DNA of 64,000 bases, from NCBI GenBank assembly GCA_963774265.1, contig CAVZDU010000002.1, positions 256,001 to 320,000 of the forward strand, read 5' to 3'. The notes below the pieces were generated by a model. It saw nothing but the letters and a program-made list of their open reading frames with translations, had not been told where the DNA came from and did no database searches. Shown here one piece after another: positions 22,694 to 43,382 of the stretch. Position 1 is the stretch's first letter; each line of letters opens with the position of its first letter. The stretch comes from an uncultured Chloroflexia bacterium. GTDB lineage: Bacteria > Chloroflexota > Anaerolineae > CG2-30-64-16. Made by a program: the position numbers and the translations under genes.

Positions 22694-22766
22694 GGGTCGC
22701 TAGCTCAATTGGCAGAGCATCTGACTCTTAATCAGAGGGTTCAGGGTTCGAGTCCCTGGCGACTCA
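22694..22766 (+). tRNA. tRNA-Lys (CTT), no encoded CCA
   Basis: GGGTCGC/GCGACTC acceptor stem, TAGCTCAATTGGCAGAGC D arm, TCTGA-CT-CTT-AA-TCAGA anticodon arm, GGTTCGAGTCC T arm. Confidence 0.97.
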
Positions 22767-23303
22767 TGACTAATCAGAGGGGGGAAAACGTCCGTTGCGA
22801 TGTTTTCCGGTGACGGCGCCCCGTTTGGGGCGAGGAAGTTGGGTATTCGGTTGTCAAGGTGCGTGAATGGCCCGAAGGCAATCGTGACTTGAATCGGCAG
22901 CGCGCCAACGCTGCCGATTCGCTTTAACGGGCCGGCGGCGGAACGGTCTAGCAGCGCCTCGATGCGGTTCCAATCGTCAGCGGTCAGCCCGATGTAGCCC
23001 ATCGAGTACTCCGTTACGTAGCAGATCCGGCCCTAACGCAAAAGGCCGCCCACGGCTTGACCGGGGCGGCCCCTTCGACTACACTACCCTCCGCCAGGAC
23101 GCCCCACGTCTTGGCCACAGCCTCGGGCCCTCGACCGGCCGCGACGCTTTGTGTTTCCTGGCACGGAATACTACCACAAGTCGTTGTCTGGGCCAATCAT
23201 TCCAGACAGGAGCGGTATTGCTCCATGCCCGTTTTGTCGTGTTATCATGCGGCCAGCCGGCGCCCAGGATCGTCCTGGGCCCGATCTCTCAGAAGGAAGC
23301 GCA

Positions 23304-23552
23304 TCAGGTCGGCTCTGCAGTCAATGGCGGGAAGAGGGTGCTCTGGAGGGATTGGGCGGCGAACAAGAGGCAGGCCTGAATATCGGCACGCTCAAGGCCC
23401 TTGTATTCGTCCAGTATTTCAGCCTCGGTTGCGCCGTTTGCCAGCAGGTTTAGGATGTATTCCACCGTCAGCCGTGTACCGCGAACGATCGGTTTGCCAA
23501 CCATCACTCGAGGATTGATGACGACGCGATCGAGCAGAAGATCTCCCTTCAT
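23304..23552 (-). CDS. DUF433 family antitoxin
   Basis: INPRVMVGKPIVRGTRLTVEYIL..LANG.T..EIL..Y..L...DI.ACL. Confidence 0.9.
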   Translation of the reverse strand: MKGDLLLDRVVINPRVMVGKPIVRGTRLTVEYILNLLANGATEAEILDEYKGLERADIQACLLFAAQSLQSTLFPPLTAEPT

Positions 23553-23745
23553 GAATCATTACCTCGGCCGTCATGATATACCGGAAGGTTCTGGATGTCT
23601 AGCCGCGATTTGCCCCGCCGGAAGCGACAGTGCTCCCAAAGAGGACCCCCGCACGCTGGGCGTCCCCCCCCCATGTCTTCCCCACTCGGACGGCATCGCC
23701 GCCTCCTGTCCCTCGCCGGCCCCGAGCGCGAGTCCATCCTGAGAT

Positions 23746-23892
23746 GCAAACGGCCGCGGTGCACATGCCGCGGCCGTTCTGTCCTGCCCTGTGCCCCTTA
23801 CGGGGCCGACCCACAAAACCGCAGATCGCACTCCTCGCACAGATAGATCTGCGTGCGCGGAAAGACCAGCATGAGGCTGCCGGCTGCGGCCT
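23746..23892 (-). repeat. Copy 2 of the Zn-finger 3' end + hairpin module
   Basis: 23834-23892 matches 32530-32588 at 57/59 nt; followed on the minus strand by an AACGGCCGCGG..CCGCGGCCGTT hairpin. Confidence 0.85.
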
Positions 23893-23944
23893 GAAGGAGG
23901 GCTCCTTCGGGCCGCGAATCTGGGCTGCGATGCGGCAGACGCGA

Positions 23945-24433
23945 CTATTTGCACTCCATGCTGAAATTGTCAACGGAGGTCGTCACCGTTCCGTTGGCGT
24001 TCACGGTGGCGTGGAACGTCTCATGCACGAGATAGTTATTGTCCGGGCCGGCACCAATGATACGGAAGTTGTTCACATATGTTGCGGTGAAGGGAAGAGA
24101 AGCCGCTGCCACGGTGAGGGTGTCGCGGGTAATGCCCGTGGCCCGGTATTGGGTTCCGGTGGACCCTACACCGCTGACGCCCATTGGTTGGTAGTGGGAT
24201 TGCAGGGTTAATCCACCGGTGCCATTAAACACGACCGCAGACACAATGTGCAGTTCACCAGTGAGATACACATCCTCACCGGTTCCGCCGCTTGCACAAG
24301 AAACATTCACGTATAGTTCGAGGGGGACTTTCTCGCTGGTGACAACCGGCGCAGCCGCGCTGAACGCGGGAAGCACAGCCCCCAGCAGCAGCGTTAGAGT
24401 CAGAGTAATCGCGAGCATAAGACGTGACTTCAT
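23945..24433 (-). CDS. Hypothetical secreted beta-rich protein
   Basis: Signal peptide MKSRLMLAITLTLTLLLGAVLPAFSA; T/V/G/N-rich mature part with two Cys. Confidence 0.75.
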   Translation of the reverse strand: MKSRLMLAITLTLTLLLGAVLPAFSAAAPVVTSEKVPLELYVNVSCASGGTGEDVYLTGELHIVSAVVFNGTGGLTLQSHYQPMGVSGVGSTGTQYRATGITRDTLTVAAASLPFTATYVNNFRIIGAGPDNNYLVHETFHATVNANGTVTTSVDNFSMECK

Positions 24434-24916
24434 CTGCCTTTTTCCTTCCATACACGACTCGGCTCTGGTCGGACATTTGATGGCAGGGCCAAAGCAAGGG
24501 TTTGGTGGGCCACCCACACAACTCAAACTGCGTACATTCAGAACACAAACACGGTAGCCGACAGATGATGAAGAAAATGTAGTGGCGATTCCTGTCTCGA
24601 GTTCACAAAAATGCGATATGTCGCGCCCGCGATTGGGATGGTGTGCATCACTTGCCGGAATTGCCGAACTCTCGGTACTACTGCACTCCAGGGACAAGCA
24701 AGAAACCAAACTCACCTGCGCGGTTGGAGTTGTCGGACTCTCTTCCCGCGTTGTTCGTGCCGCGGACGATGAAGCACTGGGCCTGGCCGTCAACCAGGAT
24801 GCCAGAAAGTGATGGTGACCACCGGCGAGACAGGCAGGGTGAATTCATCCGCGCCGAGGTCCGGCAAAGCGTCGCGCGGCTCGCCGTTCATGTCATCGGT
24901 CACCTCCGAAATTGTT

Positions 24917-25024
24917 CCCTTAACGCAAACGGCCGCGGCATTCGTGTCGCGGCCGTTTGCGTTAAGGGGCGTGCAGCTAGACTGGGTCTGATCCGCAGGA
25001 TTGGAGGGCGCACTGCCCGCGCAA
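24917..25024 (-). repeat. Copy 3 (degenerate) of the Zn-finger 3' end + 24-bp hairpin
   Basis: Minus strand LRGQCALQSCGSDPV* vs LCEKCGLQFCGPDPV*; stem CCCTTAACGCAAACGGCCGCGGCA/TTCG/TGTCGCGGCCGTTTGCGTTAAGGG. Confidence 0.7.
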
Positions 25025-25505
25025 GGCCGCTCACGGGGGGACGATGCTCGCGCACCGTTTCTCTTTCCCGTTCTCACGGGGGTGGGTTCGCCTCGTTCGG
25101 CTTGACGATGACGCCTTCATGCATGAGCGAGAGCCGGTGGACATTGCTGGATTTGATGCCGTCCATATTGAGAATGCGCGCCAGTTCGGCCTGGGCGGAC
25201 TCATCGGCTTAGTTTGTATAGTCATGGCAACCTCCATGAGTTGGGCGTGAATCAGGTCAAGAAGACGCCGGTCACTGATTGGGTGACCGGCGTTGATATG
25301 AGAGGACTGATATACAGCGATGTCACTTACGCTTGGACTACAGACTCCTAGGGATCAAAGTATCTGCCGATGCAAAGAGGTAAGGGCGATTTTGCCAACC
25401 TCGCGATCATCTCGCTCTGCGCCTGCTCCTCCAGTGCGAGGGTGCGGGCCTCACCTCCAGGTGCTGTCTGGGCGCTTAGCTCACCTCCTTGTGAAGGTAG
25501 CAGCC

Positions 25506-25931
25506 TCACAGAATAATCGGCAATCTCTCGACAGCATTAGCTGACCCATCAACAGGTTCATCGGTGAATTGAATCCACTCGACAGGCGTGACGAGCGGCG
25601 GGGGATCACTCTCGACCGCCCTGAGGAACCAATACACCATGTTTACGTCGCCGGGGATGTAGGCCAACCCGTAGCTCACGTCGATCTTCGCCAGACGCAC
25701 CGAACCATTGTCTGTATCATACACGAGGACAGTTGTGCAGAGGCAACTCTTGATGGCTCGGGTTGTATTGGCGAGGCCAGGTGCCCACGGGCAACTGGAG
25801 GCATCTAACTCGCTCAGCCAATTGTCGATCATCTCGAGCTGACCATTATCCGCTTCGCTATCTTCCAAGTAATGCTGTACGCTCTGCAAACGTTGGCGCT
25901 CTGACTTCAAGTTCGCGGACTGGTGAATCAT
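25506..25931 (-). CDS. Hypothetical protein
   Basis: GGGAGG RBS; co-directional with the dksA-like gene; no family recognised. Confidence 0.55.
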   Translation of the reverse strand: MIHQSANLKSERQRLQSVQHYLEDSEADNGQLEMIDNWLSELDASSCPWAPGLANTTRAIKSCLCTTVLVYDTDNGSVRLAKIDVSYGLAYIPGDVNMVYWFLRAVESDPPPLVTPVEWIQFTDEPVDGSANAVERLPIIL

Positions 25932-25968
25932 AACAGTACCTCCCAGCTATTGCTCCAACAAAGAGCAA

Positions 25969-26070
25969 TTACCAGTGACTCGGATAGTTCGGACGGCTGA
26001 GCGAGAAGCCTACAATCAAACCTATGATGAAGGCTACCAGCAACAAGATTACGATCACGTCGATGTCCAT
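25969..26070 (-). CDS. Small (33 aa) single-pass membrane protein
   Basis: GGAGAGG RBS; MDIDVIVILLLVAFIIGLIVGFSLSRPNYPSHW. Confidence 0.6.
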   Translation of the reverse strand: MDIDVIVILLLVAFIIGLIVGFSLSRPNYPSHW

Positions 26071-26462
26071 GTGGTCCTCTCCTCCGGTGATCGATGCCTG
26101 GCACCGATCACCGAGCGTTCTCTGCAACAGCTTGCGCACAAGGTGGCGGAGGGAATGCAATCGAGACGTTCGGGACTGATGCCCTCACCGCACTGCTCAC
26201 AATAGCCGTACACCCCTTCACTGAGCAGTCGCAGTGCGTGCTGCACCTGCTGCATAGATGCGTTGCGTCGACCCACCTTCTGCTTCCATTCGTAGACGAG
26301 CAACCAATCATTAGCTCGATCTGCTGGATCGCTGGATGCCGTGCGGGCGCTAGTGGCGGCCTGCAAAGCACTTTCGTCAGTCTCGTAGTCCTGGCTTTTT
26401 AGGTTGCAGAATTCATCCTGCAGAATTCTCCGGTATTCAGCTAGTTTGATGTTCGTCAGCAT
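26055..26462 (-). CDS. TraR/DksA C4-type zinc finger protein
   Basis: DPADRA, ALR..EGVYGYCEQCGEGISPERL..IPSATLCASC. Confidence 0.88.
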   Translation of the reverse strand: MLTNIKLAEYRRILQDEFCNLKSQDYETDESALQAATSARTASSDPADRANDWLLVYEWKQKVGRRNASMQQVQHALRLLSEGVYGYCEQCGEGISPERLDCIPSATLCASCCRERSVIGARHRSPEERTTWTST

Positions 26463-26747
26463 CTGATTCTCTCTTTCTGAAGCGCTCGGCTTGCTGATTA
26501 CGCCTACAGGGTATTGCATTTTCTTCTTTGCATCATGAAGCAAACGCGTTATGCATGTGACGGATTCTTCTATGTATCGCATGATCGGAGAGAGGTGCGT
26601 CGGGAGAAGCAGTAGGAACATGATGCATTCTGACTAGTGGGGAAGCCTGATGAGTAGTGCTTTTTGGGTCTTGGTACGGGTGAATAGAGGGATGACGTGA
26701 TCAAGCCGACGCGCTATAATTCGAACATCGGCGTGGGAGGCTAAAGG

Positions 26748-29679
26748 ATGCTCGATCGTAAATTTGATTCGCCAGATCGTCAGCGTTTGTCGCCTCGCTG
26801 GCAGGCGCTTAACGGTGTTCTCAACAGCGCGATGGTGTGGTGGCGTTTTGCCTTGATCTCGGCGGCAGTTCTGATCATTAAAACACCCGATGCGCGTGAG
26901 AACGCGCATCGGGTGCTTCTGACCTGGGCGGTTTCGTACGGCATCTATTCAGTTGTTGCCCTGTGGATTTCTGTGGCCTTCCCTGCATTCTATCATAAGC
27001 GACCGGCACGGCGGCTGCGGATTCTCGTTGATGTAGCTGCTATTACCATAGCACTTTTCATCGATCCGCTTGCTCTCCGATTTCTTTGGGTTTTCTACGC
27101 GATGCGTGTGCTAGCGGCTCTGCGCTATTTCGACGGGAACGAATGGTGGATCGTTCTGGGGACAAGCATCGTGAGCATTGTGGCGGCCACTTTGACTTTT
27201 GAGCCGCTGGGCAACGGTAATGCTGTGGCGATTGTTGGCAAGAGTGCGACCCTTGGAGTCATTACTGGAGGGTTCCATTACCTGCAAAGGCTCATCCCGC
27301 GTCTCTCAAACGCGGACTTCGTATCCGAATCAGCGCTGAAGTTACTGCAAGGTCTGGATCGAGGTCAGATTCTTGAGCAGATTGCACATCTGGTGCGAGA
27401 CGGCATCCCAACCGCGGACAGCGTTGTAATTCATATGCTAGGTGGCGATGACGGCATCACACTCATCCCGGTTTTCGGGCTTGGAATTGATATCAGCCTC
27501 CTGGGTCGATCGCCCATGCGCCTAGGGGAGGGAATCGCCGGCCGGGTCCTTTCCAACCGAATCGTGGATAATGTTGGCGATGTTAGAAGAAATCAGCACT
27601 TCCAACCACTGCCTGAAGATTCGCCGAGCTTGGTGTCGCTGCTGGTGGCGCCAATGTACATGGGTGACAGGAATATCGGCACGATCAGCGTGAACAGCTG
27701 GCGTCGGCGCGCCTTTGATGATCGTGATGAGCAGCTGACAAGGACTGCCGCTTCACAGGCCGCGCTTGCGTTGGCGAATAATCGGTTGTTCGAGAGGGGT
27801 CGTCGCCAGCGGAATCAGTTGAGCCAGATATTGAACGCGAGCTTGACCTTCAACCCCTTGCAGCCCGTGGATCGATTGCTGGATCAACTCGCCGAGGCTG
27901 TTTGTCGATACAGTGCGTTCGGCATGGCAGCAGTTAATCTGATTGATGACGCGATGGGGACCGTTTCGGTCGTTGCCACGGCGGGCATTCCTCAGCCCGC
28001 ACGAGAGGAACTGATGAAACAACGTATCCTCCTCTCGGAACTAGAGCCGTTGCTTCAGGAGCAGTTTCAGGTAAGCAGTATCCTATTTCGTGCACCACAA
28101 CCGTATGCCAAGTGGCCTGAACCTAGATGCCTATGGTTATACCCCGGACCTACCGGAGGCTGGTCCTGGTATGTGGCACAAAAAAGATGTTCTACTGGTT
28201 CCGATCGTAGAGCAAAACGGCAAGGTGTTAGGATATCTCTCGGTAGATGCCCCTGAGGATAAACAATTGCCGTCTTTCGAGTCAGTTCAGATCCTCGAAG
28301 TTCTAGCCAGACTTATCGGTGGCATGGCCTCTACAGCAGGGCTTTACGAAAAACTTCAGCAACAAAGTGGAGAGACAGAACGAGTCACCCGTTTGCTGCA
28401 TCTGCTAAACCGAATTGGCACTGTCACGCCCACCATGACCTCTCTTGAACGGATACTGCATGTCCACCTTACGGGAATCACGTCCAATGACGGCCTCCGT
28501 TTTAATCGTGCAAGTTTGTTTCAGTTGGAGCACGATGAGCGAACCTTGACCGGCGTAATGGCTATCGGTCAACTGGACGAACGCATGGCCCACTCCATTT
28601 GGGAGGAGATGGTCGCTGGCAGTTCTACTATCGACCTTTATCTACAGAATATGCAGGCTGGAGCACCGATCGAATGGACAGAGTTGCACAATCGTATTCA
28701 AGGTAAACGAATCGAGATTCCGGATGATCCATCGAATGCATTATATAGAGTGCTTCAATCCAAGTCCCCATTGATTGTGCATGCGTCATCCGAATCGTCT
28801 TTACCTCCCAATTTCGTCGCTATGTCGGAGACAAACACATCGGTGGTAGTAATCCCCTTGCTTGTGGGGAATCGGTTACTTGGCATGCTTATCTGCGACA
28901 ACAAGTTCACACAGGAGAAGCTAACCAACCTAGATTTGTTACTACACTTCGCCGCACGCATGGCTGCGATGATGGAGAACGATCGACTTAACAGAGAAGC
29001 TCGCGAGTCCGCGTCAGTGGCCGGCTGGCAACAGGGCGCGTACGACGAGCGTCAGCAGTTGCACGATAAACTGCATGACATCGTCGGTGAACTGCAGACA
29101 AGAGTTAGGTGGGATATTGAAGAAGCAACTGAGCATGTCGAGAACGGGCATCGTGAACAGGCAAAGGAGGACTTGGAGGACGGTCTTGCCATTCTGGATC
29201 AGATCACTGGGCCGCTGAAAGGAGTCGTCGAAGACCTGCGTCCAACAATCCTTGCGGGTGGAGACATACTCGACGCACTACGAAGTCGTGCCCCGCGGTT
29301 GCACCCTGGACAGGTTAGTGTGGATGGACAACTCCGCACAGTACTTCCGCAGAAGATTCGAAATGAACTGTATTGGGCGGGGAAAGAAGGCTTGACTAAT
29401 GCCGCCAAGTACTCGGGTGCGAAATCTGATCCGCAGATCCACATAGCGTTGTGGCTTGAGCAGTTGGACGATCAATCCGTTCAATTGTCCATAACTGATA
29501 ACGGCGTAGGATTTGACCCCAAGCTGTTGAACGAAAATGGCCGTTACGGCGGGCTGAGCCGACTCAAACAACGGGTGGAAAGAGCCGGAGGGCAATGTTT
29601 CATCCAATCGAAGGTTGGCACCGGCACGCAGCTATTCGTAGTTTTCTCGCTATCCCAGCAGGGAGCGGAGACAGAGTGA
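26748..29679 (+). CDS. Membrane-bound multi-GAF sensor histidine kinase (HisKA_3-type); one frameshift near 28080
   Basis: TM N-terminus, GAF motifs (GEGIAG, SLLVAPM, IPLLVG); LHD, EGLTNAAKYS, DNGVGF, GTGT; ORFs 26748-28256 and 28090-29679 join across one indel. Confidence 0.88.
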
Positions 29680-30587
29680 GTCAGCTCACCGCAATGGTAG
29701 CTCTGTGTGACGATATCGAGCAAGAGGGTGTTGTTCGCATTCTGGAGCACCAGCCCGATATTCTGGTGCCCTGGGTGCTGTCCACGCTACCTGCGACGCT
29801 GAGTGGCTTCCGGAAGCACCATCCCGATGTTTTGATATTTGATCTGGGTTGGGTTGGTGATAGCGAGACAGCGAGCAGACTTAGGTCAACAATTGCCGAG
29901 CATCCCGCTGCCGTATTGATCGGCATGGCCGCTTATCATGAGCTGAGCTCGAACATTTTCGACGGTATCGCTGACAAAATACTTCTGAAAGTGGCTACGA
30001 GACAGCAACTCCTCGACACGATTCGCGATGTTTGTCGCAGGAAGCGAGGGCTGGACGATCCCGATCTAACATCGGCTCGGGCTGCGTTGCAACGGGTCAC
30101 TCTACGCATACCAGGCGATGCATGGCGGGACCATGAAATAGACATTGCGCAAATTCTCAAGTACGTGTTCTCGCCGGCACTGGGCAGCCAGTACCTTCAA
30201 GCACGGACGCTCGATGGAACAGAGCGAAGAGATGTCGTGATGGTGAACCAGTCAGAAGTAGGCTTCTTTGCTTGGGCTCGCATAAAACATGGCGTTGATT
30301 ACGTGGTGTTTGAGGTCAAGAATGTCAACGAGACCAAGCCTGAGCACCTACATCAGACAGCCGCGTATTGTTGGCGAGCGCTTGGGCGCCTGGGCTTTGT
30401 CGTAGCGAGAACTCACCCGGGGGAAACGTGGGATAGGCACGCCGCTGCGCAGTGGCACCGGCACGAGACAGTGGTCCTGTTATTGTGCGATAACGACCTT
30501 CAGCGGATGGTGGAGATGAAGGCCTTTGGCGAAGATCCAATATGTATAGTTCGGGAACTATACGACCGCCTTATTCTTTCATTGTGA
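29676..30587 (+). CDS. Receiver domain fused to a restriction-endonuclease-like PD-(D/E)XK domain
   Basis: REC with DD, PDVLIFD and LLK; C-terminal RTLDGTERRD...VFEVKN...HQTAAY...GRLGFVV...LCDNDL; GTG overlaps the kinase stop. Confidence 0.72.
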   Translation: MSQLTAMVALCDDIEQEGVVRILEHQPDILVPWVLSTLPATLSGFRKHHPDVLIFDLGWVGDSETASRLRSTIAEHPAAVLIGMAAYHELSSNIFDGIADKILLKVATRQQLLDTIRDVCRRKRGLDDPDLTSARAALQRVTLRIPGDAWRDHEIDIAQILKYVFSPALGSQYLQARTLDGTERRDVVMVNQSEVGFFAWARIKHGVDYVVFEVKNVNETKPEHLHQTAAYCWRALGRLGFVVARTHPGETWDRHAAAQWHRHETVVLLLCDNDLQRMVEMKAFGEDPICIVRELYDRLILSL

Positions 30588-30595
30588 GGTTACTA

Positions 30596-31216
30596 ATGAG
30601 CCCCAAGATTAGACTGGCCATCGCGGATGATCAAGATATTATCCTGGACGGCATGCAGCGAATCATGGGTTCGCAACCGGATATTGAGATCGTGGCAGCA
30701 ACCAGCGTACTTCCTGAAGCAGAGAATGAGGTAAGGAAACTGCGTCCAGATGTCCTGCTCTTGGACGTGAAGTGGCACGGCGATGAGCAAGCGGGTATCG
30801 ATGCAATAAGGCGACTACGTAGAGACGTACCAGAGACGCGGATAGTCGCTATCACGGTGTATGAGCACCTTATTCGGGATGCTAAGCAGGCGGGTGCCCA
30901 TGCGGTTGTTCTCAAGAGCATCTCGCGCCGTCAGCTGGTCGAACAAATTCGGCAGATTTATCAACAACCTGCTGCGCCGCTACCTGTCGTCACCAATGAT
31001 ATGGTACCCGCTCCCGAAACTCTCAGCGTGCGGGAGCTTGAAGTTCTTGAACTGCTTGCCGAAGGTAAGAGCGATCGCGAAGTGGCCAATGAGCTCAGCA
31101 TTGCGGAAAGCACGGCGAAAAACCATGTGAGTAGTATCCTTAGCAAGCTGGGAGTAGCTAATCGGGCCGCCGCTGTGTCCCTGGGACATCGCCGTAAGCT
31201 CATCAAGACGCAATGA
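30596..31216 (+). CDS. NarL/LuxR family response regulator
   Basis: IADD, PDVLLLD, LSVRELEVLELLAEGKSDREVANELSIAESTAKNHVSSILSKL. Confidence 0.95.
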   Translation: MSPKIRLAIADDQDIILDGMQRIMGSQPDIEIVAATSVLPEAENEVRKLRPDVLLLDVKWHGDEQAGIDAIRRLRRDVPETRIVAITVYEHLIRDAKQAGAHAVVLKSISRRQLVEQIRQIYQQPAAPLPVVTNDMVPAPETLSVRELEVLELLAEGKSDREVANELSIAESTAKNHVSSILSKLGVANRAAAVSLGHRRKLIKTQ

Positions 31217-31223
31217 GTCGCAT

Positions 31224-31817
31224 ATGGAAATCAGAATTGAGCTCTCGGACGAACAAATGCGGCGCCTTGGGCGTTGCCTTCGTGAAGCTCGATCGAATAG
31301 CCTGGAGGAAGCAGCGGTTGAGTTTGCCACGCTCGCAACTACGGCGTGGATTGACTGGCTGAGCGGTTATGTGCGGTATTACAGCCTCACGGAACAGTAT
31401 GCCGACTGGATCGAGGATATCTATGCCCGGCTCTTGCCCGAATCTGAGCCGCCTAGCACCGACCGGCTATACAACTCGTTCAACATCCCTTATGGTCAGG
31501 CCCAATATATCCAACGCATGCTGAACAACAAAATGCTAACCAAATGGCGTGCGCGTGCCGTTGAGGAGCTGAAGGCGGCCATGGAATTCCGTCTGCATGA
31601 GGCAGGGGAGTGGGTTCGCACAGGCAGAGGTGATGACAGCGTTGAGATCATCGTAAGCCGGCTCGCATATTTGGAGCTGAAGAGTGCTTGGGAGCGGCTC
31701 TTTCAGCAAGACCCCAATCAAGTCCCCTTCCCCAAAGTCCAGACGGCCGGGAATCTGTGCTCCATCCGCATTCCAGCCCTCTTCTTCGCGACCTTGTATG
31801 ACTCCGTCAAGCCTTGA
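31224..31817 (+). CDS. Hypothetical protein
   Basis: 197-aa ORF starting 7 nt after the RR stop; plausible globular composition. Confidence 0.7.
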   Translation: MEIRIELSDEQMRRLGRCLREARSNSLEEAAVEFATLATTAWIDWLSGYVRYYSLTEQYADWIEDIYARLLPESEPPSTDRLYNSFNIPYGQAQYIQRMLNNKMLTKWRARAVEELKAAMEFRLHEAGEWVRTGRGDDSVEIIVSRLAYLELKSAWERLFQQDPNQVPFPKVQTAGNLCSIRIPALFFATLYDSVKP

Positions 31818-31840
31818 CGGGAAAAAGGCGAGGTATACCA

Positions 31841-32299
31841 ATGGCTCAACCCGACGATGCGCTGTCCGTGATCGGTTATTTTCTTACACTGGTGGGACTT
31901 CTGGGCTCCTTCTTTTACATGCACCTGGGCGATTGGTATCGTCAAGTGCTGGCCCTTGAGGTCAAATGGGAAATCAACAGGACGGGTGACGACCCTGAGT
32001 TGCGAACCGGTCGTCGCGAGTGCCGGCATGAAGCGGCGCACATCGCTGGCTGGAGCATCTTGGCAACCAGCCTCTCTGTGTCCTCCTTTATGCTCTTGAT
32101 TTCGATCCTGGCGCTGGTTTTGTGGTTTCGTCGAGCAGACAGGACCGAGGCTTGGACGTTCATCGGCATCGCCGGTCTGGCATTCCTAATCCTTTATGTG
32201 ACTATGACCGCGTACTTCCTAATTCAAGGCTATTCCAAAGCTCGACGAATACGTGGCGAAATCGATGCCCTGGCTCATCTTGTGCGTAGCCCTCACTAA
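31841..32299 (+). CDS. Hypothetical membrane protein (about 3 TM)
   Basis: GAGG RBS; three hydrophobic segments. Confidence 0.7.
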   Translation: MAQPDDALSVIGYFLTLVGLLGSFFYMHLGDWYRQVLALEVKWEINRTGDDPELRTGRRECRHEAAHIAGWSILATSLSVSSFMLLISILALVLWFRRADRTEAWTFIGIAGLAFLILYVTMTAYFLIQGYSKARRIRGEIDALAHLVRSPH

Positions 32300-32490
32300 T
32301 GGGTGACCGCACATTGCTCTCCTCCTGCCGATTTGCCTTCCGTCTGTATCGCGCGGCCAACTCCCCGGGGGAAGACGGTGGAATGGTACGGTGTGTTCGT
32401 GGTCGAGAACCTTCTGATTCTCGCATGGGCGCGGGACCGCGCGCCAGGCGCCTCCCTAGAACGTGGCGCGCGGTCTGCCGAGGCGTGCCC

Positions 32491-32694
32491 CTACACTGGG
32501 TCCGGGCCACAGAACTGCAGGCCACATTTCTCGCACAGGTAGATCTGCGTGCGCGGGAAGACCAGCATGAGGCTGCCGGCTGCGGCCTTGCGGTGGCAGC
32601 GCCAGCAAATTTCGCCTTCGGTGGCGTTGATCCATACGGGCGGTTTGCGGTCGGAGCGGATCTTGCGGGCGCTTTTGCGGCGCATGATGGCCAT
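32491..32694 (-). CDS. Small Cys-rich zinc-finger protein (full copy 1 of the repeated module)
   Basis: AGGAGG RBS; CWRC...CEKC...C; a diverged copy elsewhere differs by synonymous changes. Confidence 0.72.
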   Translation of the reverse strand: MAIMRRKSARKIRSDRKPPVWINATEGEICWRCHRKAAAGSLMLVFPRTQIYLCEKCGLQFCGPDPV

Positions 32695-32806
32695 CGGTGC
32701 TTCCTCCTGTGTGTGCCGGCGTCGCGCAGAGCTGTGTGCGCGATCCCGCCAGGCAAGCGCGGGGGACGGCGCTGACTCACCGCCCCCCTTCCCGTCCTTA
32801 TGAGGA

Positions 32807-33196
32807 CTACATAGCCTCCCCCGGCTCCTCGCCGGCCTTTTCGGCCGCGGCCGCCGGCGCCTTCGGCCCCGTGCCGTTCCCGCCGGGCGCGGCCTTCAGC
32901 CGGATCACGGTCAGCTCCCACCCCGCGACCCGCATGGGCGTGGGTTCGAGCAGGACCTTCTTGCCGAAGCAGCTGGTCACATCGTCCCCAAAGAGCGCCT
33001 GCAGCGCGTCCTGGTTCGTCTGCGAGAGGACCAGGCCCTTTTTGGTCTCCCGGAAGTACAGCACCGCTGCGGGCCGGTTGCGCTTCTCGGCCTGGGAATA
33101 GACTTCTTCGACCACGACCTGGTCGATGGTGAGCGTGCGGGCCTTGCCCTGCAGGTGGTCGGCCTTGAGCCAGCGATCGAAATCACTCCACTTCAT
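32807..33196 (-). CDS. Phage-type hypothetical protein, possible OB-fold ssDNA-binding protein
   Basis: WLKADHL..LTI..V..E..VLYF..KGLVL..TN..LFGDD...GK pattern recalled from phage proteins; acidic low-complexity tail; GGAGA RBS; function inferred. Confidence 0.65.
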   Translation of the reverse strand: MKWSDFDRWLKADHLQGKARTLTIDQVVVEEVYSQAEKRNRPAAVLYFRETKKGLVLSQTNQDALQALFGDDVTSCFGKKVLLEPTPMRVAGWELTVIRLKAAPGGNGTGPKAPAAAAEKAGEEPGEAM

Positions 33197-33208
33197 GGGG
33201 TTCTTCTC

Positions 33209-33484
33209 CTAGTGATGGGTATTGGTGTGCCGGCGCTGGTCCGCGTGCCGGATCAGCTCGCCCGGCCAGAAGCCGTAACGTAGATGGTGGACCATGCGGT
33301 GGTCCTCGCTGCGCACGTCGAGCTCAATCATGATCCCGCCGGTGTTCGTGACCAGGGCGACCACGCGGGAGATCTGGCCATGCGGCACCCCACGCCGGGT
33401 GTAGTCCGGCAGCGTGATGGGGATGATGATCTCCTGGGTCTGGTCATCGGCGAGCTCGGACAGGTTGATGACATAGCGTCCCAT
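33209..33484 (-). CDS. Hypothetical protein
   Basis: GGAGGAGG RBS; tightly packed with 32807-33196. Confidence 0.65.
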   Translation of the reverse strand: MGRYVINLSELADDQTQEIIIPITLPDYTRRGVPHGQISRVVALVTNTGGIMIELDVRSEDHRMVHHLRYGFWPGELIRHADQRRHTNTHH

Positions 33485-33898
33485 ATTAGCCCCTCCTCCA
33501 GATGGGCAGTCCGCCCCGGCGGTCGCGGATGTGGATCATGTCCACGTGCTGGCTGCCGGTGGTCAGGATGTGGTTGCGCAGCCGCCAGGCCGGCGGCCCT
33601 CGCCGGCCTGGCTGGGCACGAGGCCGCGCCCGCCGCATGCTCCGCACAGCACCTGACAAAAGCGTCCTGAGCAATGCCAAACAAACAGGGAGGAGTGGCA
33701 AGCGCCGGCTGCCCATACGACGCAAGGCAAGGAAGCCAGAAGGCCTCCCGGTCACCCTCCAGCCGCAAGGGGCAAAGCGGCCCCCATAGAAAGGCAGCGC
33801 CAGCCATCCGCCTCCCCAGATTGCTCCCGCCAGGGGAGGCCGGTCGTCATTCCCTACTCTCTCATTGATCGCGCGACCGCGATGGGGCGGGAGCGCGC

Positions 33899-33968
33899 AC
33901 GGGCAACGGGGCGCGCGGTTGGGGGGCGGGGTGTGGGTCCCGGGCCTGCGAGCGAGGCGAGGGAGGTC
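33899..33968. repeat. G-rich direct repeat A
   Basis: ACGGGCAACGGGGCGCG (17 nt identical) plus ~50 nt similar to 35794-35862. Confidence 0.75.
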
Positions 33969-34396
33969 AGATGGTGTGGCGCGATTGGGCGTTAGTGGCG
34001 CGAGGTGCGGAGATGGGTGGGAGGGGATCGCGGGGGAACCGCAGTGCGGTGCCGCCCGTCGGACTCTTGTCCATCGTCAGTTCGGCCGTGGACCACTTTG
34101 GGTGAAAATTCGCTGGACCAGCTTGGGTGAAGACACCTGGTCCAGATAATATCTCAGGAAGTGGTGTAGAAGCAGCCCGATGCGGTATTGGCAACCGTCG
34201 ACGCATTCGTATGGATCCTGGCCTATTGTTTGGTCGTTGCAGTTGCACCTTCCGCGGATGACATGAGAAAAAGACCGTTAACGCGTCGTCTTTACACCAG
34301 AGCGTCGAAATGATAGACTCTTATCAGAATTGTCAAGCGTCAAATGAGACCAAACTTCTTACTCACATCTCATGACTCAATCGCTAAGGGGGTACT

Positions 34397-35686
34397 ATGG
34401 CGACGAATACCATTCTTGTGAACACGTACACCAACGGGATCCTTGGACCCAGCGCCCAAATGCTGGGGCCGGTAAGGGACGGCGGAACCATCATTGCCAA
34501 TACTGCACCGGGATGCTGGGGACCGATGATCACGCCCGAGATCCGCGGCGGTCATGAAGTCACTCAGCCGGTGGCAGTGGAGGGGGCAATGCCGGGAGAC
34601 AGCATTGCGATCCGTATTCTTTCCATCGATGTGACCAGCAAAGTCACCTCCTCCGGCGTTGATATCATTCAGGGAAGCTTTTGTGTGGGAGATCCTTTCG
34701 TGGCAGCGAAATGCCAGAATTGCGGAAAACTCTGGCCGGAGACCCACATCGAGGGGATCGGAAAAGATGCCATCAAATGCGACGACTGCGGCGCTACTGT
34801 CGCACCCTTTGTCTTTGCCAACGGATACACTATCGCCTTCGATGAGAAGAAGACAGTGGCTTTGACCCTTGCCAAAGAGCAGGTGGATCAGATCGCTCCA
34901 GAGGCGGAAAAATACGCTTCCCTTCCCGAGCATTCCATTCAGAACCCGGTCACCACGCTGGCTCCCAGCGATCTGCCCGGCATCGCGACCAGGATGAGGC
35001 CCTTTGTCGGACAGTTGGGGACATGCCCGCCAGTGGATACCCCGGACAGCCACAACGCAGGTGATTTCGGTCAATTTCTCATTGGAGCGCCTCACGATTA
35101 TGCCATCCAGCCGGAAGGCATTGAACAATTGACGGACGGACATATGGATGTCAACCGCGTACGGGCAGGCGCGGTTCTGATCGTCCCGGTCCGCATGGCA
35201 GGAGCCGGTGTCTATGTAGGTGATATGCATGCGATGCAGGGAGATGGCGAAATTGCAGGCCACACCGCTGACGTCTCTGGCGTGATCGTGATGCAGGTGA
35301 ACGTGATCAAGGGACTTTCGATCCCTGGACCGATCCTCCTGCCCAATGAAGCGGACCTGCCCCATCTTGCCAAACCACTGAATGAATCGGAGAAACTGGC
35401 TGCGACGCGTCTCAGCGAACAGTGGAACACCTCCATCGAGGAGACGGCTCCCATTTCCTTTATCGGAACTGGTGCGAATCTCAACGCTGCAGTAGACGGG
35501 GCAATCAGCCGGGCTTCCCAGGTCCTGGGCATCCGTCAGGAAGAAATAAAAAACCGCCTGACCATTGCAGGCGGACTGGAAATCGGGCGCTACCCTGGAA
35601 CAGTGACCGCCACCTTCGCTGCTCCCGTGAAGGCCTTGAAAAACGCGGGGCTCTACGACCTGGTCAAAGAACAATATCAGCTATAA
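34397..35686 (+). CDS. Acetamidase/formamidase family protein
   Basis: GGHEVTQPVAVEGA.PGD, CxxC..CxxC insert, DGHMD, GDMHAMQGDGEIAG. Confidence 0.9.
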   Translation: MATNTILVNTYTNGILGPSAQMLGPVRDGGTIIANTAPGCWGPMITPEIRGGHEVTQPVAVEGAMPGDSIAIRILSIDVTSKVTSSGVDIIQGSFCVGDPFVAAKCQNCGKLWPETHIEGIGKDAIKCDDCGATVAPFVFANGYTIAFDEKKTVALTLAKEQVDQIAPEAEKYASLPEHSIQNPVTTLAPSDLPGIATRMRPFVGQLGTCPPVDTPDSHNAGDFGQFLIGAPHDYAIQPEGIEQLTDGHMDVNRVRAGAVLIVPVRMAGAGVYVGDMHAMQGDGEIAGHTADVSGVIVMQVNVIKGLSIPGPILLPNEADLPHLAKPLNESEKLAATRLSEQWNTSIEETAPISFIGTGANLNAAVDGAISRASQVLGIRQEEIKNRLTIAGGLEIGRYPGTVTATFAAPVKALKNAGLYDLVKEQYQL

Positions 35687-35722
35687 AAAGATGCCCGGCA
35701 GGAAGCCGGGCATCTTTGCTTT
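35687..35722 (+). terminator. Rho-independent terminator
   Basis: AAAGATGCCCGGC-AGGAA-GCCGGGCATCTTT then GCTTT directly after the stop. Confidence 0.8.
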
Positions 35723-35793
35723 GTGCGCCAGGCATGTCGTGTCTGAGCGCCAGGATGACCACCTGGGCAAGCGTGCGCGGCCGGGACAGTCAA

Positions 35794-35862
35794 ACGGGCA
35801 ACGGGGCGCGAATGGGAGGGTGGGGCGCGGGCCATGGGCCCGCGGGCGAGGCGTGGGGGGTC
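35794..35862. repeat. G-rich direct repeat B
   Basis: Diverged copy of 33899-33968. Confidence 0.75.
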
Positions 35863-36156
35863 TTCCCCCATGGCTGTGTCATCGTTGGCGAGCAGATGGG
35901 CGAGTTGGCCGTGATGATCGTGACCGGCGTGATGGCCGGATCGATCTTCGGCGTCATCATGGCCCGGGTCGGCTGCCGGTGATGAACACTGGTCTGGGTC
36001 TGATCAGGCCCGCGGACATGCATCAGCAAGGACAAAAACTGGCGTACGTAGCAAAACGGTTGTCTTGGCAGACAACGCCGCTTGCACCATGTGTCACATT
36101 GACATACTATGGAGACACGCCAATCGCTATAGTCTCTCCCACCAGGAGGCACTGCC

Positions 36157-37045
36157 ATGAAGCGTTTTGTCTTTTGGCTGCTCAGCATCGCTGCACTCAT
36201 CACCATGCTCTTGCCCGTCAGCACTCTGGCTGCAGCTCAGGGGCTGGTCAGGCCGGAGTCGGGCGACGCCAATGGCTACTCAGTCTACCTGCCGCTGGTT
36301 GTCAAGCTGCCTCCTCCCCCCGGCGATATGGTTCTCGTCCCCGCCGGCACGTTCCAGATGGGCTGCGACCCGGCGCACAACGGCGGCTACACGTGCTCCT
36401 CCGATGAGCTGCCGCTGCACACGGTGTACCTGGACGCGTACCGCATCGACCGGACCGAGGTGACCAACGCGCAGTACGCGCAGTGCGTGGCGGCCGGGGG
36501 GTGCACGCGCGCCATCCAACAGCTCGTCCTACACCCGTTCGTCCTATTACGGCAACCCGACCTACGCCAACTACCCGGTGATCTACGTGAGCTGGTATCA
36601 GGCGGCCGCCTACTGCGGGTGGGCGGGCAAGCGGCTGCCGACGGAGGCGGAGTGGGAGAAGGCGGCGCGCGGGGCGAGCGACACGCGGGCCTACCCGTGG
36701 GGCGATGCGGCGCCGACCTGCGCGCTGGCGAACAAGTATGATTGCGTAGGCGACACCAACGCGGTGGGCAGCTACCCGGCCGGGGCCAGCCCGTACGGCG
36801 CGCTGGACATGGCCGGCAATGTGTGGGAATGGGTCAACGACTGGTACGACGAGGGCTACTACAGCATCTCGCCGTACAGCAACCCGCCGGGGCCGACGAC
36901 GGGGACTATGAAGGTGCTGCGCGGGGGCGGTTGGGACTACTCCCGCTACGACGGCCATTTCCGCGCGCCGCGCCGCAACGCCTACTACCCGACGGTCCAG
37001 TTCTACCAGCTCGGTTTTCGGTGTGTTGCAGCCCCAGGAATGTGA
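36157..37045 (+). CDS. Secreted FGE-sulfatase/SUMF1 (CLec-fold) protein; one frameshift near 36510
   Basis: Signal peptide, [57 protein letters not shown]...GFRC. Confidence 0.9.
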
Positions 37046-37340
37046 GCTGCTGGGCTTTGGGTTCTGGCCTTCTGAGGGGGGAGCCTGAGGGGGCAAGACC
37101 CCCCCGTCCCCGCCAGCTCGGTAGCGCAGGGCCGGACTGAAGCCGGCCCCCGAGGGGGTCTGGGGCGAGGAGCCCCGGTCGGAGGGGGCGTTAGGGCCGC
37201 CTTCGGCGGCTCTAACGTAAGGGGGAACCCCAGTGGGGTGCCGCGTCTTTAGATCGGCCTGGCCGATAGGCCAGGTTCCACTGTTGGATCGTTTCGCCGC
37301 CGCAAAAAGGGGGACCGACCCACCCGGGCCGGCCCCCCGC
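37046..37340. other. Dense cluster of hairpins between the convergent FGE gene and the A-free ORF
   Basis: GGGGG-CAAGA-CCCCC, GGGGC-GAGGA-GCCCC, GTTAGGGCCGCC-TTC-GGCGGCTCTAAC, CCTGGCC-GATA-GGCCAGG, plus a minus-strand terminator ending TTTTT. Confidence 0.7.
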
Positions 37341-37350
37341 ACGCGGACCC

Positions 37351-37623
37351 TCACGCCCGCACCCAGCGCAGCGCGCCCGCCAGCGGACCGGACGACACGG
37401 CCACCCACGACCCACCCGGCGCCAGCGGAGCCAACGCAGAGGGCGGAAAGCCCACGCAGAACACCAACACGGACACCCCCAAGCCCGCAGCCAGCCGGGC
37501 AGCACCGAGCGACCCGACCGACGAGGGCGAGGAGAGGAACCACACCCCGACCGACGAGCGAGGCGCACCAGCCACGGGGCGCACACAGGCAGCGGATCGG
37601 CGAGCCAGGCGCGGCGTGAGCAT
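37351..37623 (-). CDS. Adenine-free ORF, C-terminal half of a SLOG/DprA-like protein (probably 5'-truncated)
   Basis: No T on the + strand at 37352-37596; SVGSLGAARLAAGLGVSVLVF resembles DprA SGSLITARLA..GREVF. Confidence 0.55.
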   Translation of the reverse strand: MLTPRLARRSAACVRPVAGAPRSSVGVWFLSSPSSVGSLGAARLAAGLGVSVLVFCVGFPPSALAPLAPGGSWVAVSSGPLAGALRWVRA

Positions 37624-37886
37624 CCGCCCAGCTATCGTGAATCATCACGGCATCGGCGCTGACGCCGGCCGTGAGAGTGGCACGATCGCTATCGAGCACG
37701 AACGGAGGCTCGCTCGACTGCCAGGCGGCCAGCAGGTCGGTTGTGGCACCCCACCGGGGCTGTTCGGGTCTGCCAGAAGCCCAACGGATTTAGCGGAACA
37801 GGGTTCAGTCATGGGGCACCTCCTCAAAGTGGGTATGGGTCGGTCACCGGTTTGGCCCTCACCAGTGTAAGTGCCCCAACACTTGG

Positions 37887-38528
37887 CTACCCATCGAACT
37901 GTACGGAGCTTGATCCCTGCTCTACAGATCTGCTTTTCCGGGCTAGAATCACCTGGTGACGTTCGTCCCCGCCTTCGTCGATTTCGTCCAGTAGTATCTC
38001 GAAGCCGGCGCCACGGATGATCGCACTATTCTCATCAGGGCCGTAATGGCTCCACCACATCGTTACACCGTAGAAATCAGATTCGGCACCTTCCCATTTT
38101 GAGGCGCCCATAGTCACCAGGATGTATCCACCCGGCCTCAAGAACGTGTTGATGGTGCGGAAAAGCGATTCGTGCGATTCTCTTGGTAGGTGGAAGATCG
38201 CGTAGAACGAAACAACCGCATCGACCTGGTACTCGCTGGCGCACAGTCCGCGCATGTCTGCCACCGCGAAGGTGGCCCCAGGCACATTGGCGCGCGCTAG
38301 TTCGATTTGTTTTTCGGAGATGTCCAGGCCGCTAACTCGAAACCCTCGATCTACAAGATAGCGATCGATCGGAATGCCGGCTCCGCAACCAAGATCGAGA
38401 ACGGCCGCCTGAGGTTTAAGAAGCGGCGTGAGCTTATCCAAATATCGATTGCTCTTGAACTGATTGCGTCCCCGAAGGTAGGCTTCAGCAGCTTTGTTAT
38501 AGCTGTCTTTCACGATGGAATCAGCCAT
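37887..38528 (-). CDS. Class I SAM-dependent methyltransferase
   Basis: VLDLGCGAG, GLDISEKQI, ADM, FYAIFHLP, LRPGG. Confidence 0.92.
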   Translation of the reverse strand: MADSIVKDSYNKAAEAYLRGRNQFKSNRYLDKLTPLLKPQAAVLDLGCGAGIPIDRYLVDRGFRVSGLDISEKQIELARANVPGATFAVADMRGLCASEYQVDAVVSFYAIFHLPRESHESLFRTINTFLRPGGYILVTMGASKWEGAESDFYGVTMWWSHYGPDENSAIIRGAGFEILLDEIDEGGDERHQVILARKSRSVEQGSSSVQFDG

Positions 38529-38639
38529 GCCGGATTTGTCTCCCCTTGTGGTAGGTCGGCCACACGTGGCGGTCGGCCGCCGTCACGAGGGCGTTGGACA
38601 CGTAAGCGTGAGCGAGGTCTGCGCCTTGCCAAGGGCTAG

Positions 38640-40234: not shown

Positions 40235-40239
40235 CTAGG

Positions 40240-40491: not shown

Positions 40492-40620
40492 GGTTGCCCT
40501 CCTGACGGTTGGGTCCGGCCCCATATGGCCGGCCGGGTAAAGGTGTTCGATGTTCTGAATTCGTTTGCCACCGGCATCCATCATACACCTTCACGCCTTC
40601 GCCGTCTATCCCCCTTAGCG

Positions 40621-42160: not shown

Positions 42161-42362
42161 CCCTTAGCGGCATCGCCGGCGATGCTTACCCCCCGCCTCC
42201 TGCAGCCGATCCAGCGGCGGCCCGTTACCGCGCGCCGCCACTTGCCGCCGTGCCCGTCCTCCCCGATAATCCCATCATCGTCCATTGTCGCCGCTCATCG
42301 CCACCGGAGTCCCACCGCCCATGCAGCAGACCGAACTCGCCGCCCGCGACTATCGCGTCCTC

Positions 42363-43295: not shown

Positions 43296-43382
43296 TCGCT
43301 CTCCTCCTCGCAGATTGTCGCTCATCAAAACAATTGAGGCCATTTTACCACGCATCGGCAGACTAATGATCTGCTCGGGGTC

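Follow-up and report, generated by a model that had tools for sequence, protein, structure and literature searches.

A decayed composite island at the 3′ end of a tRNA-Lys gene of an uncultured Chloroflexia bacterium, probably formed from partial copies of an uncharacterised integrative element

A stretch of 64,000 nucleotides from the 5.5-Mb metagenome-assembled genome of an uncultured Chloroflexia bacterium, hereafter the window (G000:C2:256001-320000, inside a 909-kb contig), carries directly downstream of a tRNA-Lys gene a series of gene remnants, hairpins and unrelated genes, for which a preliminary description made from the sequence alone had proposed a new small element stacking onto itself and capturing genes. 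The analysis presented here indicates that the region is probably a composite, decayed and now immobile island at the 3′ end of tRNA-Lys, in which an uncharacterised integrative element of Chloroflexota is represented by two to three partial copies of the same orientation, together with deletions, insertion sequence (IS) elements and imported genes. Most of the observations of the preliminary description proved to be real. The island is of a known kind, the integrative elements of Chloroflexota from which it was built form an undescribed family, and nothing in the window can now move by itself.

The DNA matches to relatives from the same genus cover kinase, RNase II and cupin genes, the latter two being located upstream of tRNA-Lys in the gene map, and then end at the 3′ end of the tRNA gene. 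Synteny with three relatives (G001, G004 and G007) ends at window position 22766-22767, and each of them has other DNA downstream; the tRNA gene itself is 100% identical in G004 and G007, and the match with G001:C1 reaches position 22766. The contigs of the relatives stop 8-12 kb past tRNA-Lys. Conserved genes reappear only near 52 kb of the window, where they are found on other contigs of the relatives. Since synteny stops at the tRNA gene and conserved genes are back only near 52 kb, the segment from 22.8 to ~51 kb is considered a variable zone beside the tRNA (Table 1). An Rfam scan of 20-42 kb (E<=1) returned only the tRNA, plus sub-threshold chance rows on one of the hairpins (hairpin C), and the repeats found when 22-39 kb was compared with the whole genome by BLASTN were IS elements, paralogues of an FGE-sulfatase family gene, tRNA-like matches, a Zn-ribbon gene and a 70-nt repeat.

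The minus strand of this zone harbors three co-oriented, collinear partial copies of one gene backbone, which point at the tRNA and have no attachment-site repeats between them. Read toward the tRNA, the copies consist of a fragment of a 96-aa gene (p96) followed by p91, p129, the Zn-ribbon open reading frame (ORF) zn67 and hairpin B; of a 5′ scrap of a DUF3150 gene, a Zn-ribbon scrap and hairpin C; and of another Zn-ribbon scrap and hairpin A. The series ends with hairpin H4, a conserved end piece and the tRNA. This order of scraps is the operon order of the metagenome contig L031, in which genes coding for an AAA ATPase, a 107-aa Zn-ribbon protein and a 438-aa DUF3150 protein precede the 96-aa gene, p91 and p129. 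With all the scraps co-oriented on the minus strand and arranged as in an operon, the repeated arrival of related elements beside the tRNA is a reasonable explanation.

Similarity to L031, and likewise to the metagenome contig L030, covers window 32816-33592 at 82% identity, which corresponds to p129, p91 and the 3′ part of the 96-aa gene; the similarity of the backbone stops at 33592 at the DNA level or at 33659 at the protein level. The DUF3150 scrap, located immediately upstream of Zn-ribbon remnant C, is 83% identical to L031 3347-3453 as DNA and also matches the DUF3150 protein encoded beside a p129 homologue at G007:C6 (E 3e-4), the latter protein and that of L031 being 70% identical. 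On a further contig, L032, a 65-aa CxxC...CxxC ORF follows the p129 homologue and is a positional analogue of zn67; this ORF has no similarity to zn67, nor has the 98-aa ORF of L032 to p91. No family was assigned to p91 in the Pfam, PHROG or NCBIfam scans, and ESM Atlas gave no usable match for it. Matches to p129 were obtained in five of the 60 genomes of relatives, with five separate pieces in G007, so decayed copies are common in the genus. One of them (G007:C6:11159-11573, locus L015) is split by a frame change, lacks the p91 gene and is flanked by genes for the DUF3150 protein, a 493-aa DNA methyltransferase and a HerA-like ATPase, with a tRNA-Pro gene 3.6 kb beyond the integrase of that locus. 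A literature search on DUF3150 found nothing relevant, and the backbone family (p96, p91, the OB-fold protein p129 and DUF3150) has no described function or name.

The product of p129 is a predicted phage-type OB-fold protein with a disordered tail. Its AlphaFold model, built with 19 of the 44 homologues (pLDDT 74), has OB topology with the order b1-b3, helix, b4-b5, that is, a putative five-strand barrel with the helix between strands 3 and 4. Among PDB structures the best rows were all OB folds and weak, the best Foldseek match being PrgE of pCF10 (E 7e-3) and the best VIA score (Z 6.2) belonging to an OB domain, with single-stranded DNA-binding proteins (SSBs) at Z 4-4.6. In BFVD 11 matches were found at E<=1e-3 (best E 7e-9, TM 0.67) with phage SSB and DUF669 rows lower down, and the nearest ESM Atlas clusters are 69-94% viral. 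At the sequence level p129 matched no Pfam family at E<=0.01, SSB and DUF669 included, and no NCBIfam or PADLOC family; there was one weak match to a PHROG family of unknown function (E 9e-4), the p129 profile had no match among PDB sequences, and none of 36 candidate stretches in IMG/VR viral contigs was confirmed as a relative. In its predicted five-strand barrel, disordered tail and phage-like distribution p129 resembles the DUF669 phage proteins, PRD1 P12 and PrgE (PDB 8s4t), the last of which is an OB-fold ssDNA-binding protein (PMC11137577), whereas its lack of a Pfam match and its weak structural scores to solved SSBs (the Foldseek and Z values given above) set it apart from the SSBs of phages and plasmids. 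Thus, the "phage-type SSB-like protein" of the preliminary description may be retained with regard to the modelled fold and the viral distribution, with ssDNA binding as a putative function, and not with regard to membership of the SSB or DUF669 sequence families.

No integrase, Rep, HUH or reverse transcriptase (RT) gene was detected among the 49 window ORFs (27 + 22) taken into the Pfam scan, and the tyrosine integrase family PF00589 has no match within the window, the nearest being at C2:458866, as had been noted before for integrase and Rep. The relatives of the backbone, on the other hand, do possess recombinases. Six loci of p129 homologues have 8 kb of context or more, and in four of them a gene or gene fragment of a tyrosine integrase is located nearby; no HUH/Rep transposase or RT families were found among the scanned neighbors. 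At L034 an excisionase-like gene follows the p129 homologue and the tyrosine integrase lies 0.9 kb away; the distances are 6.5 kb at G007:C15, 10 kb at G001:C40 (a copy with an internal stop) and 12 kb at G007:C6, while the p129 homologues of G007:C8 and G007:C1 have no integrase near them (the PF00589 search covered G001, G002, G003 and G007). A decayed prophage with a standard integrase was what the preliminary description itself had named as evidence against a new element, and the neighborhoods of the homologues of 32807-33196 are of this kind.

A further trace of tRNA-targeting elements is the end piece next to tRNA-Lys. Its counterparts adjoin a full tRNA gene at three loci of relatives, namely tRNA-Lys at G001:C1, which is the same tRNA-Lys as in the window, and tRNA-Asn at G001:C41 and G003:C385, as well as 29-nt partial tRNA-Lys and tRNA-Asn fragments at G002:C45 and G001:C32. 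The C-terminus of a conserved gene precedes the end piece at four of these loci (G001:C1, G001:C41, G003:C385 and G001:C32), and at G001:C1, the locus whose gene was scanned, this is an HTH_17/excisionase-like gene (phrog_66), which is gone from the window. From this sequence context, the end piece is assigned to a family of integrative elements that target tRNA genes, as their end on the excisionase side, and its position next to partial tRNAs would be the junction expected inside a tandem array. The end piece is non-coding, ~100-130 nt long, with a hairpin formed by AATCGGCAGCG...CGCTGCCGATT, and is situated between the excisionase-like gene and tRNA-Lys, tRNA-Asn or partial tRNAs (counterparts are L022 3727-3829, L027 693-792, L028 3380-3473, L029 6022-6090 and L024 9828-9960). 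It is probably an arm or the terminator region of the attachment site of the elements.

The part that is repeated in the window is the end of the Zn-ribbon gene together with a GC-rich hairpin directly after each copy. Three Zn-finger-plus-hairpin copies had been described, of which the module and the hairpins are real, with only one gene copy being whole in the window and the other two being 3′ remnants. Remnant A, 81% identical to zn67 over 31 aa by TBLASTN, starts straight after the stop codon of the secreted-protein gene. Outside the window there is a third, full-length copy at C1:1080833-1081132, which is 79% identical to the window gene by BLASTN and has lost the first cysteine while retaining the Shine-Dalgarno site; the differences between it and zn67 are spread evenly over the codon positions (12/13/17) and amount to 10 synonymous and 20 non-synonymous codon changes. 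This copy lies 120 nt inside the left edge of an 11.7-kb block (G000:C1:1080713-1092390, L049) containing genes for a LacI regulator, URO-D-like enzymes, a creatininase-like protein and a sugar ABC transporter, in place of which G002:C164 has ~100 nt. Homologues of zn67 were found in none of the 60 relatives; a word search of 5.8 billion proteins returned only zn67 itself, and an exhaustive HMMER search of 1.84 billion representatives returned zn67 and one spurious repeat protein. The latter, P0046 (733 aa), was considered as a relative and judged spurious, being a tandem-repeat protein with a score made up from nine weak stretches.

Hairpins A, C and H4 and the hairpin of the C1 copy have a common GGCCGTTTGCGTTA(A)GGG-like tail. 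The 14-nt tail motif has 30 matches with <=2 mismatches in 5.5 Mb, and only those at this locus are on such hairpins; a REP (repetitive extragenic palindromic) or MITE (miniature inverted-repeat transposable element) family was considered and rejected, as BLASTN and the genome scan with the tail motif found no members outside this locus and C1. H4, the possible fourth hairpin of the preliminary description, does have a tail like those of A and C, but was rejected as a fourth Zn-ribbon remnant because its local alignment to the Zn-ribbon gene is not significant. Most simply, the hairpins are transcription-terminator-like stems closing the backbone operon.

Table 1 Features of the variable zone and of the adjacent tRNA-Lys gene. 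Positions refer to the window.
Feature	Position	Strand	Characteristics
tRNA-Lys (CTT), sole tRNA gene of the window	22694..22766	+	ARAGORN; Rfam 67.7 bits
Conserved end piece of tRNA-targeting integrative elements (putative), ~130 nt, with 11-bp hairpin	22826..22958	-	80-89% identity to pieces at five loci of genus relatives
Hairpin H4 (possible fourth)	23014..23060		Tail TTTTGCGTTAGGG, like tails of A and C; -33.8 kcal/mol; z -1.9
DUF433 gene, antitoxin-type, orphan	23304..23552	-	PF04255 E 2.7e-22; 74% identical to G005:C297
Hairpin A, downstream of remnant A	23746..23778		12-bp stem; z -2.7
Zn-ribbon remnant A, residues 36-66 only	23791..23892	-	86% identical to 32485-32588, BLASTN E 8e-24
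Secreted-protein gene, signal peptide MKSRLMLAITL...	23948..24430	-	56.5% GC; found in 1 of 60 relatives, 41% identity
Hairpin C, 52-nt near-perfect palindrome, related to hairpin A	24917..24968		-44.2 kcal/mol; RNA fold z -6.7; 0/200 shuffles as good
Zn-ribbon remnant C (...CALQSCGSDPV and stop)	24975..25040 (approximate)	-	Aligned with copies A, B and C1; last ~40 nt of gene
DUF3150 gene, isolated 5′ fragment, residues 8-41	25101..25202	-	TBLASTN 68%, E 1e-8, to 438-aa DUF3150 protein of L031; PF11348
Low-GC (~54%) cargo block	25506..32299		Pfam, PHROG, NCBIfam and PADLOC scans; GC profile
Hairpin B, downstream of zn67, unrelated in sequence to A and C	~32435..32475		12-bp stem
zn67, intact 67-aa Zn-ribbon ORF, CWRC...CEKC (CxxC...CxxC)	32491..32694	-	AGGAGGA Shine-Dalgarno sequence
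p129, predicted phage-type OB-fold protein with disordered tail	32807..33196	-	44 homologues, all unnamed
p91, small conserved ORF upstream of p129	33209..33484	-	Homologues with 58% identity at the corresponding place of L030 and L031
96-aa gene (p96), 3′ part, residues 40-94	33492..33659	-	E 4e-12; gene precedes p91 in L031
70-nt direct repeat, copy 1, G-rich (C-rich on minus strand)	33899..33968	+	79% identical to copy 2
Acetamidase/formamidase gene (34397-35686) with 107 nt of promoter region	34290..35686	+	PF03069 E 4.7e-44
70-nt direct repeat, copy 2	35794..35862	+	Pair flanks acetamidase gene
FGE-sulfatase family gene, frame change at ~36510-36580	36157..37045	+	Intact paralogue at C1:994304-995185
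Tract nearly T-free on plus strand (A-free on minus strand), 340 nt	37293..37632		Hairpin cluster just before low end
SAM-dependent methyltransferase gene	37887..38528	-	54% GC; 81% identical to G002:C17
IS element with DUF772/DDE_Tnp_1 transposase	38636..40238	+	Three further genome copies, 99-100% identity
Transposase gene (IS at 40620-42162)	40682..42142		Two further copies, 99%
IS66-type transposase gene	43381..44502		

The proposed history of the island is as follows. An intact element would carry a tyrosine integrase gene and an HTH_17 excisionase-like gene around its attachment site, and its operon would consist of genes for an AAA ATPase, a Zn-ribbon protein, DUF3150, the 96-aa protein, p91, the OB-fold p129 and a small Zn-ribbon ORF followed by a terminator hairpin. 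Two or three related elements would have integrated successively at the tRNA site, regenerated by each integration (tandem accretion), with newcomers pushing the older copies inward. Later deletions would then have taken the integrases, the excisionases, the internal attachment sites and most of the backbone genes, so that what may be left over is the operon tail (p91, p129 and zn67), two Zn-ribbon 3′ scars with their hairpins, the DUF3150 5′ scrap and the cargo. Decay of the island is indicated by the orphan DUF433 gene, the gene fragments and the three transposase genes.

Comparable structures have been described elsewhere. Islands at tRNA genes which derive from tyrosine-integrase elements or prophages are catalogued in Islander (PMC4383910), and composite islands are treated in PMC8978831 and PMC4891358. 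Like these, the variable zone begins directly 3′ of a tRNA at a synteny break, is foreign in composition and contains cargo and IS elements, and integrase and excisionase-like genes occur with the relatives of its backbone; unlike them, the window has no integrase in cis and no displaced tRNA fragment at the far end. The tycheposons of Prochlorococcus (bioRxiv 10.1101/2020.12.28.424599) are an example of repeated integration at an island tRNA which leaves degraded remnants, and site-specific accretion of integrative and conjugative elements (ICEs), integrative and mobilizable elements (IMEs) and phages is a subject of PMC5704250 and PMC13651849. The likeness to tandem accretion is that a single tRNA is accompanied by several related, co-oriented remains, separated by degraded pieces and cargo, and that in the relatives partial tRNAs adjoin the same element end. 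However, the window differs from such arrays in having no internal attachment-site copies and no integrase fragments, and its repeated marker is the 3′ end of a gene with a hairpin and not a partial tRNA.

Several observations weigh against a decayed composite island of this origin. The source genome is metagenome-assembled, 84% complete and has 5.65% contamination. No partial tRNA-Lys was found between the copies when the last 25 nt of the tRNA were searched with <=5 mismatches in the window and <=3 in the genome, and TBLASTN searches of the window with element proteins, among them integrase, excisionase, AAA ATPase and methylase, revealed no remnants at E<0.01 other than the DUF3150 and p96 scraps, so tandem accretion is deduced from just three short scars. 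The G001 element at the same tRNA-Lys has the end piece, yet no p129 homologue in the available 11.7 kb, which makes the connection of the end piece with the p129 operon an indirect one. The attribution of zn67 to the backbone derives from this window and from the positional analogue in L032, which has no sequence similarity to it; zn67 was found beside p129 at no other locus and is an orphan, and its full copy at C1 lies among ordinary metabolic genes with no other backbone gene near.

Part of these observations would be accounted for by a single phage-like element at tRNA-Lys, whose terminal Zn-ribbon/hairpin module was copied locally two to three times by illegitimate or short-homology recombination as 'moron' genes entered behind the operon terminator. 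There is only one end piece and there are no internal partial tRNAs, the repeated part is just the last ~100-150 nt of the Zn-ribbon gene with the hairpin, and every cargo block starts right after a hairpin; moreover, cargo is taken up at this position in a relative as well, since at G007:C6 the p129 homologue has a two-component system immediately after it, in the same orientation. Against local copying, the copies are either old or of differing origin, as A and B are 86% identical and hairpins A and C are like that of the distant C1 copy while hairpin B is unrelated, and the DUF3150 5′ scrap upstream of remnant C is more readily explained by a second backbone with an internal deletion than by a copied terminator. 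We regard the single element as a serious rival, although as an unlikely one, perhaps a chance of one in several. It is improbable that the ~0.3-kb module of Zn-ribbon ORF and hairpin acts as a site of recombination or capture, where an enzyme encoded elsewhere would insert foreign genes, or copy the module, at the hairpin; the idea arises because the orphan module occurs three to four times in this genome only and at the edges of foreign DNA in two places, and if true, it would mean a cassette-capture system unlike integrons. Rather less credit still is given to the reading of the preliminary description, i.e. a new, small, integrase-less self-stacking element which captures genes with the help of a trans-acting enzyme and whose ssDNA or cDNA stage makes use of the hairpins and the OB-fold protein. 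What speaks for it is that units of Zn-ribbon 3′ end and hairpin do alternate with unrelated cargo, that the window has no recombinase, that the module is found three to four times and only in this genome, with the C1 copy 120 nt inside the edge of the strain-specific 11.7-kb block, and that p129 has an OB fold. Stacking beside tRNA-Lys is borne out in so far as co-oriented repeated parts are split by compositionally foreign genes; the undescribed, integrase-less element, the enzyme in trans and the ssDNA or cDNA intermediate are unsupported. Backbone relatives are tied to ordinary tyrosine integrases and excisionase-like genes, and an OB-fold protein is common to phages in general and indicates no special ssDNA life cycle. 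Neither RT nor HUH/Rep genes are among the 49 window ORFs, and the DprA-like protein is not there, as PF02481 matches the genome only at C10:316097 and C2:880235, both outside the window. Hairpins of this family occur at this locus and C1 only, neither target-site duplications nor defined ends were found, and the A-free tract, the C-rich repeat and the hairpin cluster, which had been counted among the modules of the element, do not recur with the backbone elsewhere in the genome or among the matches listed for the relatives.

Chimeric joining of reads from different organisms, to which the contamination value and the sharp GC steps could point, is hardly a likely origin of the region, given that the window is inside a 909-kb contig with both flanks matching genus relatives, that diverged repeats (79-86%) and consistently ordered scraps are not products of misassembly, and that the IS copies are common to other contigs of the same genome. 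The least probable explanation considered is an integron-like cassette array without an integrase, i.e. a cluster of attC sites lacking an integron integrase (CALIN), with H4, A and C as attC-type sites and the DUF433 and secreted-protein genes as cassettes. The window does resemble CALINs in that these two short genes, which have the same orientation, form single-gene units closed by a hairpin each, and the outer arms of hairpin C, CCTTAAC...GTTAAGG, each agree in 6 of 7 positions with the attC R''/R' consensus (RYYYAAC/GTTRRRY). However, both arms are present on hairpin C alone, with A, H4 and the C1 copy having no 5′ arm; the hairpins share ancestry and the units have homologous gene remnants in common, not structure alone; the 7-kb block comprises several genes, most of it being on the opposite strand; and no integron integrase (IntI) was found in the genome, where TIGR02249 scored 123.5 bits at best against a cut-off of 265, in an assembly that is 84% complete. 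A composite, decayed tRNA island remains the reading preferred here.

The cargo had been listed correctly as DUF433, a secreted protein, a GAF/histidine kinase/LuxR cluster, acetamidase and FGE. The DUF433 gene lacks the partner ORF which is located downstream of its counterpart in G005:C297. In the low-GC block, a 141-aa ORF and a gene for a DksA/TraR-type protein are on the minus strand, and genes coding for a membrane GAF protein, a GAF histidine kinase, a 330-aa protein, a LuxR response regulator, a 197-aa ORF and a 161-aa membrane protein are on the plus strand. The 330-aa protein (29595-30587) has a receiver-like N-terminus, 31% identical to the REC domain of the neighboring response regulator, and a C-terminus matching the PADLOC candidate defence family PDC-M36A (E 3e-18) and phrog_31260, and it may, from these matches, be a two-component-controlled effector. 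PADLOC, applied to 17 window proteins, returned only this PDC-M36A domain, the methyltransferase (mad2-like) and generic HTH rows. At four of the seven loci examined with Pfam, p129 homologues or fragments lie within ~3 kb of HisKA_3 kinase or LuxR genes or their fragments (window 28090-31216; L015 8666-10600; L017 12770-15822; L018 9991-10239), and two-component systems may be habitual cargo of the element family.

With a genome mean of 62.6% GC, the backbone and its scraps have 63-70% and the cargo 52-57%, and the blocks of atypical composition have either 52-57% or 65-72%. Hairpin C with Zn-ribbon scrap C and the DUF3150 scrap has ~63% and the stretch of p91, p129 and zn67 has 64-70%, compared to ~54% for 25.2-32.3 kb, 57% for the acetamidase gene, 66-72% for the FGE gene together with the tract almost devoid of one base and ~54-57% for the methyltransferase gene and IS. 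A sharp GC step at ~32.3 kb separates the last cargo gene from hairpin B, and each backbone scrap is followed on its tRNA side by lower-GC foreign genes.

The segment of 33.6-38.6 kb, including acetamidase, FGE and methyltransferase genes and IS, is a further unrelated mosaic of the variable zone, with no indication of membership of the element. The acetamidase block is 94% identical to G002 (C62:1-729 and C233:3640-3777), compared to ~78% for neighboring core genes; the similarity ends at the stop codon and the flanks differ, which suggests, at the level of sequence, either a recent exchange of this single gene or its strong conservation. The C-rich repeat of the preliminary description is confirmed as two direct copies with 79% identity over 70 nt, found nowhere else in the genome by BLASTN nor among the genus-relative matches listed. 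The A-poor leader at 33640-33820 is likewise correct (14 A in 181 nt of the minus strand), and so is the hairpin cluster at 37040-37300 (DNA fold z -2.3; a fold as good was obtained for 3 of 200 shuffles). The frame change of the FGE gene may be a sequencing error or mark a pseudogene, and is therefore no proof of decay. The tract beyond it has no more than 3 T per 200 nt of the plus strand, and the minus strand of 37351-37623, described earlier as an A-free ORF, indeed contains 4 A in 273 nt. As every stop codon, whichever strand it is on, requires either the missing base or the complement of it, all six frames are open and the ORF is not evidence of a gene. Four single-base-free tracts of such kind are present in the 5.5-Mb genome, one of the others being a Pro/Thr linker inside a gene. 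The tract is not a tandem repeat, has no counterpart among the genus-relative matches listed and is overlapped at its low end by a 13-bp terminator-like hairpin of the minus strand (37309-37338); the plainest guess is that it is a decayed low-complexity coding region. Within ~6 kb (38.7-44.5 kb) there are three transposase genes, at least two of them in multi-copy IS elements.

With this, a candidate new class of mobile element is removed, and the pattern is that of tRNA islands after repeated integration and decay. To our knowledge, mobile elements of Chloroflexota have been little described. The relatives of the backbone provide a first outline of an unnamed, phage-like family of integrative elements in soil Chloroflexota, with an AAA ATPase, a Zn-ribbon gene, DUF3150, two small ORFs, a predicted OB-fold protein and a putative excisionase-side end beside tRNA-Lys or tRNA-Asn.

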